DNA from: a phage
DNA length: 64,000 nt
Assembly (NCBI GenBank): GCA_012747475.1
Contig: GCA_012747475.1_3928.1
Strand: one strand, 5' to 3'
Below the pieces are notes generated by a model that was given only the letters and a program-made list of their open reading frames with translations, was not told where the DNA came from and did not search any database. Below are positions 5,742 through 7,219 of this stretch, in pieces (position 1 is the stretch's first letter; each line of letters begins with the position of its first letter). The translations under genes were made by a program, and so were the position numbers.

Positions 5742-5819
5742 GGGAGATTGACGGTAATTGGTAAACCTACCATCCTTAGAAGTTGGTGTTTGAGGGTTCG
5801 AATCCCTTGTCTCCTACCA
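5742..5819 (+). tRNA. tRNA-Leu-like (anticodon TAG), short variable arm
   Basis: Acceptor GGGAGAT/GTCTCCT + A + CCA, D-loop AATTGGTAAA (Leu-like), anticodon loop CTTAGAA, T-loop TTCGAAT; only 78 nt. Confidence 0.5.
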
Positions 5820-5826
5820 AATTAAT

Positions 5827-5902
5827 GCAGGTGTAGCAAAATGGTTATGCGGCTGACTCTTAATCAGTAAGACGATGGGTTCAATTCCCTCCACCTGTAC
5901 CA
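5827..5902 (+). tRNA. tRNA-Lys (anticodon CTT), paralog of tRNA at 4207
   Basis: Acceptor GCAGGTG/CACCTGT + A + CCA; anticodon stem GCTGA/TCAGT with loop CTCTTAA; T-loop TTCAATT. Confidence 0.55.
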
Positions 5903-5907
5903 AAAAT

Positions 5908-5983
5908 GGGGTCATAGTTTATATGGTTAAAATTCGAGTTTTGCAAACTTGGGAACTGAGTTCAATTCTCAGTGACTCCACCA
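5908..5983 (+). tRNA. tRNA-Ala (anticodon TGC)
   Basis: Acceptor GGGGTCA/TGACTCC with G3:U70 pair (alanine identity element), anticodon loop TTTGCAA, T-arm CTGAG-TTCAATT-CTCAG, A + CCA. Confidence 0.7.
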
Positions 5984-5989
5984 ATTAGT

Positions 5990-6064
5990 GCATCCATAGT
6001 TTAAACGGGAAAATTACAGTCTTCCAAACTGAGGTTGAGGGTTCGATTCCCTCTGGATGCTCCA
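5990..6064 (+). tRNA. tRNA-Gly (anticodon TCC)
   Basis: Acceptor GCATCCA/TGGATGC, anticodon loop CTTCCAA, T-arm GAGGG-TTCGATT-CCCTC, T + CCA. Confidence 0.65.
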
Positions 6065-6071
6065 AATTAAT

Positions 6072-6147
6072 GCTCCTATCGTATAATTGGCTATTACGGT
6101 TGCCTTGTAAGCAACTTATCAGGGTTCGAATCCTTGTGGGAGCACCA
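6072..6147 (+). tRNA. tRNA-Thr (anticodon TGT)
   Basis: Acceptor GCTCCTA/TGGGAGC, anticodon stem GTTGC/GCAAC with loop CTTGTAA, T-loop TTCGAAT, A + CCA. Confidence 0.7.
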
Positions 6148-6242
6148 ATTCAGAGGTCAAGTGAAAGACCGCTGGTGTCAACTGAAGACCGTAACAAATT
6201 CCACGGAGTTGAGTTAGCGGCACAACTTCAGACCTCTTTCAT

Positions 6243-6317
6243 ACTCGCTTAGTTTATATGGTAAAACATCACCCTTACAAGATGAAGAAAAAGGTTCAAG
6301 TCCTTTAGTGAGTACCA
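6243..6317 (+). tRNA. tRNA-Val (anticodon TAC)
   Basis: Acceptor ACTCGCT/AGTGAGT, D-stem GTTT/AAAC, anticodon loop CTTACAA, perfect T-arm AAAGG-TTCAAGT-CCTTT, A + CCA. Confidence 0.65.
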
Positions 6318-6318
6318 T

Positions 6319-6396
6319 GTTCCAGTATCCCAATTGGCAGAGGATGCAAGCTCAAACCTTGTATTAGTGACGGTTCGAATCCGTCTTGGAACACCA
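6319..6396 (+). tRNA. tRNA-Leu-like (anticodon CAA), short variable arm
   Basis: Acceptor GTTCCAG/TTGGAAC + A + CCA, D-loop CAATTGGCAGAG, anticodon stem GCAAG/CTTGT with loop CTCAAAC, T-arm GACGG-TTCGAAT-CCGTC. Confidence 0.55.
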
Positions 6397-6401
6397 ATTT
6401 T

Positions 6402-6477
6402 GCAGGATTAGTTCAAATGGATAGAGTAACAGTCTACGAAGCTGTTAATAGGGGTTCGAATCCCTTATCCTGCGCCA
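6402..6477 (+). tRNA. tRNA-Arg (anticodon ACG)
   Basis: Acceptor GCAGGAT/ATCCTGC (perfect), anticodon stem ACAGT/GCTGT with loop CTACGAA, T-loop TTCGAAT, G + CCA. Confidence 0.7.
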
Positions 6478-6496
6478 ATTTAAAGAGGCTATTTAG

Positions 6497-7054
6497 ATGA
6501 GATATTTGAAGTATGCTTCATGGATTTTCTTAGCTTTGTTAGAGCCATTTGCAGCAATCTTAGCAGTTATCTTAGCACCTTTCGTAGTTCCATTCTACAG
6601 TGAGAAGAAAGGACATCTGCCTTTCGGGTTCAGATGGATGGAAACTTATGACAACCCAATTGATGGTGATGAAGGTCACGTTAAAAGATGGGCTAATATT
6701 AGATGGATTGGTAAACTAGGTGTCTACATGCAAAGAGTCGGATGGCTCTGGAGAAACAAAGCTTATAACTTCTCTTACCATGTATTAGGGAGAGATGTAA
6801 AAGATGTTACTAAGTGGAAAGGTAATATCAACGTAAGTTCTGACCCTGAAGATAATCAGACAGGTTATCTCCTAATGTGGAACAGTAATGCTTGGGGATT
6901 ATTCGCTTTTATCCCATCAATTAAAATCTTTGGTAAACAATTTTACTGGAGAATTTATATTGGATGGAAACTAAAAAGTGTTGTCCCAGAAGAAAGAGCA
7001 TTCTCAAGGGAAAGAGTTATGTTGGCATTCTTTATTCATCCACTGAGAAAGTAA
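6497..7054 (+). CDS. hypothetical membrane protein
   Basis: ORF track; AAGAGG SD; hydrophobic N-terminal segment (IFLALLEPFAAILAVILAPFVVPF); embedded in tRNA cluster. Confidence 0.6.
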   Translation: MRYLKYASWIFLALLEPFAAILAVILAPFVVPFYSEKKGHLPFGFRWMETYDNPIDGDEGHVKRWANIRWIGKLGVYMQRVGWLWRNKAYNFSYHVLGRDVKDVTKWKGNINVSSDPEDNQTGYLLMWNSNAWGLFAFIPSIKIFGKQFYWRIYIGWKLKSVVPEERAFSRERVMLAFFIHPLRK

Positions 7055-7062
7055 AGATTTAA

Positions 7063-7138
7063 AGGGGATTAGTTTACAAGGTTAAAACCTCGGTCTTTGA
7101 AATCGAAGAAGTTGGTTCAATTCCAACATCCCCCGCCA
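7063..7138 (+). tRNA. tRNA-Gln (anticodon TTG)
   Basis: Acceptor AGGGGAT/ATCCCCC (A1:C72 mismatch), D-stem GTTT/AAAC, anticodon loop CTTTGAA, perfect T-arm GTTGG-TTCAATT-CCAAC, G + CCA. Confidence 0.65.
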
Positions 7139-7140
7139 AT

Positions 7141-7219
7141 GCTCCATTACTCCAATTGGCAGAGAGGCCAGACTTAAAATCTGTGTTATGTATCGGTTCG
7201 AATCCGATATGGAGTACCA
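7141..7219 (+). tRNA. tRNA-Leu-like (anticodon TAA), short variable arm
   Basis: Acceptor GCTCCAT/ATGGAGT + A + CCA, D-loop CAATTGGCAGAG, anticodon loop CTTAAAA, perfect T-arm ATCGG-TTCGAAT-CCGAT. Confidence 0.55.

Follow-up and report, generated by a model that had tools for sequence, protein, structure and literature searches.

Three short leucine tRNA genes in a phage tRNA cluster

The stretch of phage DNA analysed here (64,000 nucleotides (nt) of contig GCA_012747475.1_3928.1; hereafter the window) carries three leucine transfer RNA (tRNA-Leu) genes that lack the long variable arm. In the textbook view, bacterial tRNA-Leu is a type II tRNA. The window, with a G+C content of 39%, belongs to a Felix O1-like myovirus (Felixounavirus), and the region is 97–99% identical to such phages from Escherichia coli, Salmonella, Shigella and Citrobacter. 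The region is matched by 313 phage records, most of the annotated ones listing “tRNA-Leu (x3)”, and the three genes are already annotated in more than 200 GenBank relatives of the window. They lie in a cluster of tRNA genes, of which 24 of the 25 encode CCA according to ARAGORN and whose gene order is the same in Shigella phage Sf14, a member of the same subfamily.

3048..8415, + strand for all genes: tRNA cluster of 25 genes with small open reading frames (ORFs) interspersed, including the three tRNA-Leu genes (ARAGORN, Rfam)
5742..5819, + strand: tRNA-Leu(UAG), 78 nt including CCA (ARAGORN; Rfam RF00005, 40.0 bits)
6319..6396, + strand: tRNA-Leu(CAA), 78 nt including CCA (ARAGORN; Rfam RF00005, 44.0 bits)
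7141..7219, + strand: tRNA-Leu(UAA), 79 nt including CCA (ARAGORN; Rfam RF00005, 47.5 bits)

An earlier, sequence-only reading had placed 78–79-nt tRNAs with anticodons TAG, CAA and TAA at these coordinates. ARAGORN agrees with it exactly, and Rfam matches all three genes, which are named below by these anticodons, over the full length of RF00005 (model positions 1–71 of 71; gathering score 29). The A73 that it had read in each gene is borne out by ARAGORN and is followed by an encoded CCA. Its variable regions of 6–7 nt hold for the CAA gene (6 nt, ATTAGT) and the TAA gene (7 nt, GTTATGT), while the TAG gene has 5 nt (TGTTT). None of the three genes has a variable region of more than 10 nt forming a stem-loop, the hallmark of type II.

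The D-arms are of the leucine type, as had been proposed. The CAA and TAA genes have 3-base-pair (bp) D-stems (TCC/GGA and CTC/GAG, respectively) closing the 11-nt D-loop CAATTGGCAGA. In the TAG gene, three pairs and a C.U mismatch enclose the loop AATTGGTAA, and one extra base lies between the acceptor and D stems. The anticodon loops are CUCAAAC in the CAA gene, CUUAAAA in the TAA gene (A36 A37 A38) and CUUAGAA in the TAG gene (5775–5781; A37), the last with a U30.U40 mismatch in its anticodon stem. With a leucine anticodon, a variable region of 4–8 nt ending in a pyrimidine at position 48, and a 3-bp D-stem with an 11-nt D-loop, the genes have the makeup of type I tRNA-Leu, to which the D-arm of the TAG gene conforms only loosely. 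A pattern combining a Leu-type D-loop, an in-register NAR anticodon, a short variable region and a T-arm matched only these three genes in the 64 kb, with 0 matches expected from 100 shuffles. Rfam aligned the TAG gene at 5743–5815, with the acceptor shifted by one base; this register was rejected, as the ARAGORN register yields an A73-CCA tail like that of the other tRNAs of the cluster.

The acceptor stem is closed by G1.U72 in the TAG gene (5742/5815) and in the TAA gene (7141/7215). These positions are columns 1 and 77 of an alignment, called A1 below, of 69 diverse phage short-arm tRNA-Leu genes that includes the three window genes. G1.U72 was found in 30 of the 69 and G1-C72 in 35, so that this wobble beside the discriminator is unusually frequent.

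Isotype assignment

The isotype names given by ARAGORN rest on the anticodon alone. As tRNAscan-SE isotype scores we used the values published for Shigella phage Sf14 (2025 Sf14 paper), transferred through sequence identity: the Sf14 CAA gene is identical to that of the window at 78 of 78 positions and the Sf14 TAA gene at 78 of 79 (98.7%). The Leu model is top for both, with 49.1 against 36.1 for the next isotype in the CAA gene and 60.2 against 54.2 in the TAA gene (2025 Sf14 paper). The score of the Sf14 TAG gene was withdrawn for the window TAG gene, since it belongs to a different allele (45 of 78 positions identical). Because this score was not transferable, 1,196 non-Felix viral tRNAs, their anticodon loops masked, were used to build one hidden Markov model (HMM) per isotype; these models recovered the own isotype of 18 of the 25 window tRNAs. 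The short-arm leucine model (Leu_short) was the best for the TAG gene (26.8 versus 14.8), the CAA gene (32.1 versus 10.7) and the TAA gene (39.5, with the long-arm model Leu_long second at 16.9), and Leu_long ranked second or third for each of them.

Isotype prediction with the masked models did not point to another amino acid for any of the three genes, leucine ranking first for all of them. The sequence-only reading had considered that its own anticodon assignment might be wrong. This option is refuted, since ARAGORN and Rfam agree on the anticodon register and leucine is top in the isotype comparisons.

Conservation and covariation

Comparison with the tRNA-Leu genes of related phages, which had been proposed as a check, revealed that the short form is kept. 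The TAA gene is invariant in all 23 loci carrying it, and the CAA gene is nearly invariant. The TAG slot of Felixounavirus holds three alleles, all of them short: the window type, a second allele (allele B) and a different 77-nt gene. Allele B has the same body as the window type with the entire anticodon stem swapped from CCATC/GTTGG to TCTCG/CGAGA. Across alignment A1, 97.5% of the cells at paired positions are paired, compared with 58.5% in shuffles and 34–45% in slid controls. Double-sided changes were detected in 20 of 20 pairs, and none of 500 shuffles reached the observed score.

Homologues of the TAG gene (77 nt, about 81–84% identical) are present in BF23/T5-like phages and in a Seunavirus, and the TAA gene is 82.5% identical to a 77-nt tRNA-Leu of Rhodococcus phage Dorin. 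In the BF23 record, which was annotated by the experimenters (AJ604530), the homologue is a tRNA-Leu for codon CUA, which in E. coli becomes an “effective amber suppressor” once its anticodon is changed to CUA. The U30.U40 mismatch of the window TAG gene recurs in the BF23 copy, which has, in addition, a covarying 29-41 pair.

Phage T5 (5023–5709) carries the HNH gene hegC together with a long-arm 85-nt tRNA-Leu(UAG), while BF23 (3678–3957) has no hegC and the short 77-nt form. Judging from the two sequences, this difference looks like an allele swap beside a homing endonuclease.

Frequency of the short form in phages and bacteria

Short-arm tRNA-Leu genes were sought by pattern scans of viral and bacterial sequences. 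Counts are of unique tRNA genes, and each scan is a sample of about 120 loci among the matches listed rather than a full census. The viral scan gave at least 120 matches, and about 70 of those listed were short-arm tRNA-Leu genes of 75–81 nt, with all six anticodons represented. Its matches also included Lys, Gln, Glu and Phe tRNAs out of register, whose loci form a less biased sample. An independent sample consisted of viral loci chosen through a tRNA-Met pattern, without regard to leucine. The numbers of genes with short and long arms in the two samples were as follows.

53 viral loci from non-Leu pattern matches: Leu 17 short, 32 long; Ser 1 short, 22 long; Tyr 1 short, 16 long
119 viral loci via the tRNA-Met pattern: Leu 46 short, 44 long; Ser 0 short, 60 long; Tyr 0 short, 19 long

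These counts suggest that about a third to half of phage tRNA-Leu genes are short. The length of the variable region in phage tRNA-Leu is bimodal, at either 5–8 nt or 12–19 nt. Among 115 unique phage short-arm tRNA-Leu genes, A73 is present in 107, U48 in 114 and U8 in 107. Position 37 in phage short-arm tRNA-Leu genes with an NAG anticodon is A in 43 and G in 18, and host leuW has G37. The G37 of host tRNA-Leu is assumed to carry 1-methylguanosine (m1G37); on this assumption, the modification would be absent from the phage tRNAs with A37.

A stricter pattern gave at least 120 bacterial loci, nearly all of those listed being tRNA-Leu genes of 74–78 nt, mostly from Actinomycetota. Among these listed loci, the gene is a lone tRNA in 80 of 120 and belongs to an array of at least eight tRNAs in 24 of 120; the commonest D-arm is GCC-CAATTGGCAGA-GGC, and the anticodon is mostly UAA, followed by UAG and CAA. 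Lone chromosomal copies were found, among the matches listed, in Mycobacterium, Nocardia, Arthrobacter, Rhodococcus, Gordonia, Bifidobacterium and Rothia, and further copies in dense tRNA arrays of cyanobacteria, Acidobacteriota and others. The bacterial spread of the short form is thus far wider than the single biochemically studied case in Streptomyces.

The window CAA and TAA genes are 72–78% identical to unrelated short-arm tRNA-Leu genes of phages and bacteria, and 53–64% identical to host genes from which the arm has been deleted. The phrase “unusual truncated Leu tRNAs” in the sequence-only reading is therefore right only in part: these are short leucine tRNAs, but their resemblance to the short-arm family exceeds that to host genes with the arm deleted, which speaks against truncation, and a form shared by about a third to half of the sampled phage tRNA-Leu genes is hardly unusual. 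Recent deletion of the arm from host genes was rejected on nearest-neighbour identity, and an invention specific to phages was rejected because bacterial chromosomal copies exist. The genes instead belong to a widespread and old short-arm tRNA-Leu lineage distributed over phages, bacterial tRNA arrays and Actinomycetota chromosomes. A literature search, with most subscription journals and the earlier T5/BF23 tRNA papers outside its reach, turned up no account of phage tRNA-Leu with a short arm; the term “type I tRNALeu” was found in one paper.

Identity elements for leucyl-tRNA synthetase

Leucyl-tRNA synthetase (LeuRS) of E. coli requires A73, the A15-U48 Levitt pair, G18G19, A20a, U8:A14 and contacts linking the D-loop to the T-loop, and it needs neither the anticodon nor the long arm, an arm-less minimal tRNA-Leu remaining active (PMC9976931). 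A73, A14, A15 opposite U48 (the last base of the variable region), G18G19 and A20a are present in all three window genes. U8 is clear in the CAA and TAA genes and ambiguous in the TAG gene, because one extra base precedes its D stem. The T-loop is TTCGAAT in all three genes, T54, C56 and A58 are invariant in alignment A1, and the bases for the contacts between the T- and D-loops (G18:U55, G19-C56, U54:A58) are present, from which the tertiary pairs of the three tRNAs are predicted. One relative of the window phage (L006, IMGVR_UViG_2974591419_000001) has G73 instead of A73 in its tRNA-Leu(CAA); recognition by E. coli LeuRS should therefore be abolished there, if A73 is as critical as reported.

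The long arm can be missing because bacterial LeuRS reads A73 and the geometry of the elbow and core (U8:A14, A15-U48, G18G19, A20a and the T-loop contacts) rather than the anticodon or the arm. The tRNA-Tyr and tRNA-Ser genes of the same cluster keep long variable arms.

3607..3694, + strand: tRNA-Tyr(GUA), 88 nt, long variable arm kept, 15 nt (ARAGORN)
5396..5485, + strand: tRNA-Ser(UGA), 90 nt, long variable arm kept, 20 nt (ARAGORN; Rfam, 31.1 bits)
8243..8335, + strand: tRNA-Ser(GCU), 93 nt, long variable arm kept, 21 nt (ARAGORN; Rfam, 46.2 bits)

Constraint is the simplest reason why the arm was lost in leucine tRNAs only, because seryl-tRNA synthetase (SerRS) and bacterial tyrosyl-tRNA synthetase (TyrRS) use the arm and LeuRS does not. 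The use of the arm by bacterial TyrRS is of a lesser degree than that by SerRS. The difference between SerRS and LeuRS in this respect has been reviewed (PMC9976931). TrmL, which 2′-O-methylates host tRNA-Leu(CAA/UAA) at position 34, is likewise unaffected when the arm is deleted.

Proposed role in infection

In the 38 long ORFs of the window, leucine is encoded by TTA (26%), CTT (27%), TTG (15%), CTG (15.5%), CTA (11%) and CTC (5.5%). In E. coli, CTG makes up about half of the leucine codons and CTA is rare. The three anticodons thus cover leucine codons that the AT-rich phage over-uses relative to its CUG-dominated host. The three leucine tRNAs of Sf14 have been classed as “consistent” with codon compensation (2025 Sf14 paper).

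Taken together, the three genes are probably functional type I leucine tRNAs, most likely charged by the host LeuRS and used in infection. The tRNAs would be transcribed from the phage tRNA cluster and then processed, and they would be charged with leucine by the LeuRS of E. coli. During infection, the tRNA with anticodon UAA would read UUA and UUG, that with CAA would read UUG, and that with UAG would read CUA and CUG and perhaps CUU. Both the leucylation of the three tRNAs by the host enzyme and their use in translation are what we infer from the genes themselves.

Objections and alternative explanations

Several points weigh against this interpretation. The TAG gene is irregular (extra base, weak D-stem, U.U mismatch) and scores lower with Rfam than any other class I-sized tRNA of the cluster. 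Annotations of a sequence identical to it disagree, with “tRNA-Leu” in many records and a pseudo “tRNA-OTHER” in that of Salmonella phage DaR-2019b (L279 201–278), and a T5-like homologue is “tRNA-Pseudo-TAG” in Yersinia phage phiR2-01. In single-sequence folding, the cloverleaf was not the minimum-energy fold for the TAG and TAA genes (z-scores −0.3 and −1.6); the same procedure failed to recover the cloverleaf for 12 of the 25 tRNAs of the cluster and is uninformative on these genes. Part of the training set of the Leu_short model came from a pattern search that was itself based on the window genes. The BF23 suppressor proves charging and ribosomal use but does not prove insertion of leucine, because tRNAs with a CUA anticodon can be mischarged by other synthetases. 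Finally, E. coli LeuRS failed to leucylate the type I tRNA-Leu(CAA) of Streptomyces and has been described as charging type II only (Fan et al. 2019, PMC6614811). The rejection of the Streptomyces tRNA may be explained by its C48, where the phage genes have U48.

That the anticodons were mis-assigned, or that the genes have another amino acid identity and are not leucine tRNAs at all, deserves almost no credence. Bacterial tRNA-Leu does not typically have so short a variable region, the Rfam local alignment of the TAG gene uses the shifted acceptor register, and Sf14's own, different TAG allele scores 65.7 for Ile2, near its 67.4 for Leu. However, in the ARAGORN register the anticodon loops have 7 nt and U33 and the tail is A73-CCA, consistent with the rest of the cluster, there is neither the G3.U70 of tRNA-Ala nor the long arm of tRNA-Ser, and the anticodons UAG, CAA and UAA suit no anticodon-reading synthetase (in part after review PMC9976931). 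Leucine is moreover the top isotype in the published tRNAscan-SE scores (CAA and TAA genes) and in the masked HMMs (all three genes), and the nearest sequence neighbours are overwhelmingly tRNAs with leucine anticodons. It is also very improbable that the genes are decaying, non-functional relics of type II tRNA-Leu that have lost both the arm and their charging, although the pseudo or “OTHER” calls for the TAG gene by some annotation pipelines, the weak single-sequence folding, the G73 of the CAA gene in relative L006 and the presence of a clearly aberrant Arg-like element in the same cluster (described below) would fit such decay, as would the Rfam scores of the three genes, the lowest among the class I-sized tRNAs of the cluster. 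Decay is difficult to reconcile with the invariance of the TAA gene in 23 of 23 loci and the near-invariance of the CAA gene, with the complete compensatory swap of the TAG anticodon stem, with covariation at 20 of 20 pairs across 69 diverse genes, or with the retention of A73 and U48 in about 93–99% of phage short-arm tRNA-Leu genes. The BF23 homologue functions as a suppressor, the genes resemble the short-arm family more than they do host genes stripped of the arm, and weak folding is common to half of the tRNAs of the cluster.

A further explanation accepts that the tRNAs are charged and holds that the short arm is itself adaptive, letting them escape a host factor that recognises type II tRNA-Leu, such as a tRNA-targeting defence nuclease or toxin, and replace damaged host tRNA-Leu in the course of infection. 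Phage tRNAs have been proposed to evade tRNA-targeting defences through changes in the anticodon loop (PMC10264068). The anticodon loop of the window TAG gene, CUUAGAA, differs from that of host leuW, UUUAGGU, at positions 32, 37 and 38, most phage short-arm tRNA-Leu genes with an NAG anticodon have A37 (43 versus 18 with G37), a third to half of the sampled phage tRNA-Leu genes are short, and so are all three alleles of the TAG slot. We nevertheless consider this explanation unlikely. We came across no nuclease or toxin with a known requirement for the long arm of tRNA-Leu, and the contrast of Leu with Ser and Tyr is already explained by synthetase requirements. In many Actinomycetota the genes are lone and chromosomal, where phage escape is not at issue, and T5 keeps a long-arm tRNA-Leu at the same slot. 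The broader proposal that arm loss made the leucine decoders invisible to any host factor reading the type II arm, whether a defence nuclease, a toxin or an enzyme with a regulatory or modifying function, is speculative and, in our view, rather doubtful.

If the window genes are functional type I tRNAs, as we favour, efficient charging of natural type I tRNA-Leu must be within the scope of E. coli LeuRS, which contradicts the published type II-only statement. The phage relies on three short-arm leucine tRNAs and has no other tRNA-Leu of its own, and within the tRNA repertoire of phages these genes are nothing out of the ordinary. They offer natural substrates for a clean test of LeuRS requirements. 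They also matter for annotation pipelines, in which such genes are sometimes labelled pseudo or “OTHER”, and for designing leucine or suppressor tRNAs of compact form.

Other features of the tRNA cluster

Four other elements of the cluster region were recorded.

4718..4799, + strand: Arg-like tRNA element (Rfam, 31.7 bits; no ARAGORN call at default settings)
4815..5162, + strand: Cys-rich ORF of 115 amino acids
5295..5382, + strand: low-scoring tRNA-like sequence (ARAGORN at a relaxed threshold)
6497..7054, + strand: ORF of 185 amino acids, DUF7338 (PF24027, 208 bits)

In the Arg-like element, the 7-bp acceptor stem includes G3.U70 and a 7-nt linker replaces the D-arm. The element further contains the hairpin GCGGU-CUUCUAA-ACCGC, whose anticodon is UCU (Arg), 23 nt of “variable” sequence, a T-arm of normal form and ACCA. 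Both its acceptor arm and its anticodon arm are similar to those of tRNA-Arg(UCU) in T5, BF23 and the Seunavirus. The element is 100% conserved in seven Felix-like loci, while 11 others have a normal 77-nt tRNA-Arg(UCU). It could be a D-armless tRNA or a pseudogene.

The 115-amino-acid ORF inside the cluster has a weak HNH match (PF01844, E = 0.008) that falls below the cutoff, and is reminiscent of the heg homing-endonuclease genes dotted through the tRNA regions of T5 and BF23. The tRNA-like sequence at 5295–5382, probably the remnant of a tRNA, lies directly upstream of tRNA-Ser(UGA); its anticodon loop has 8 nt, its T-arm is GGGGTTCAACTCCTC, and it ends in GCCA. The DUF7338 ORF lies between tRNA-Arg(ACG) and tRNA-Gln(UUG). 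Its homologues occur in T5-like phages (78% identity), in phages of 174–180 kb (58–61%) and in phages of 142–158 kb, and tRNA genes are present in most of the retrieved loci.

Comparison with known systems

Leucine tRNAs without a long arm are not new as such: the genes of this phage type are already annotated in relatives of the window, and the form has been described for Streptomyces and for mitochondria. Two points have been under-appreciated: the short form is common in phages, and phages of E. coli depend on it.

Streptomyces coelicolor has a type I tRNA-Leu(CAA) that is likewise short, with a 5-nt variable loop, and its LeuRS also serves type II tRNA-Leu (PMC6614811). In this tRNA, U8:A14 is important, and the variable loop needs about five bases, position 48 among them (PMC6614811). 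The D-loop CAATTGGCAGA of the window CAA and TAA genes is also found in many actinobacterial short-arm tRNA-Leu genes of the bacterial scan. However, the Streptomyces tRNA has the variable loop ACAGC with C48, and its own LeuRS ignores A73, whereas the window genes have U48 and A73. The Streptomyces case concerns the CAA tRNA; in the virulent E. coli phage studied here, all three leucine isoacceptors are short.

The closest phage counterpart considered is tRNAL1 (UAG) of BF23 (AJ604530), which, like the window TAG gene, has a 5-nt variable region and lies in a phage tRNA cluster beside tRNA-Ala. It has a regular 7/2/3/11/3 D-arm layout, in contrast to the extra base and shifted D-stem of the window gene, and it was the subject of an amber-suppressor experiment, while the window gene is known here from its sequence alone.

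The E. coli K-12 genes leuW (UAG), leuX (CAA) and leuZ (UAA) have the same anticodons as the window genes and share A73, U48 and an encoded CCA with them. Their layout (7/2/3-bp D-stem/11-nt D-loop/3/1/5/7/5) is also that of the phage CAA and TAA genes, whose D-loop is NAAUUGGYAGA, and the D-loop bases A14 A15 .. G18 G19 N A20a G A are common to host and phage. The difference lies in the variable arm, which is 13–15 nt in the host genes (85–87 nt long) and 5–7 nt in the window genes (78–79 nt). In addition, the host UAG isoacceptor has G37 and the phage UAG tRNA A37.

In animal mitochondrial tRNA-Leu, too, the variable region is short, and A73 and A14 serve as identity elements, but this tRNA is charged by a dedicated mitochondrial LeuRS and has a degenerate elbow and an anticodon-stem contact (PMC9976931), whereas the window genes have the canonical G18G19 and T-loop. 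Engineered arm-less “minimalist” E. coli tRNA-Leu is charged by E. coli LeuRS if A73 and the D/T-loop contacts are kept (Larkin et al. 2002, as summarised in PMC9976931). Those constructs were made in the laboratory from the host sequence; the window genes are natural molecules of the same design.

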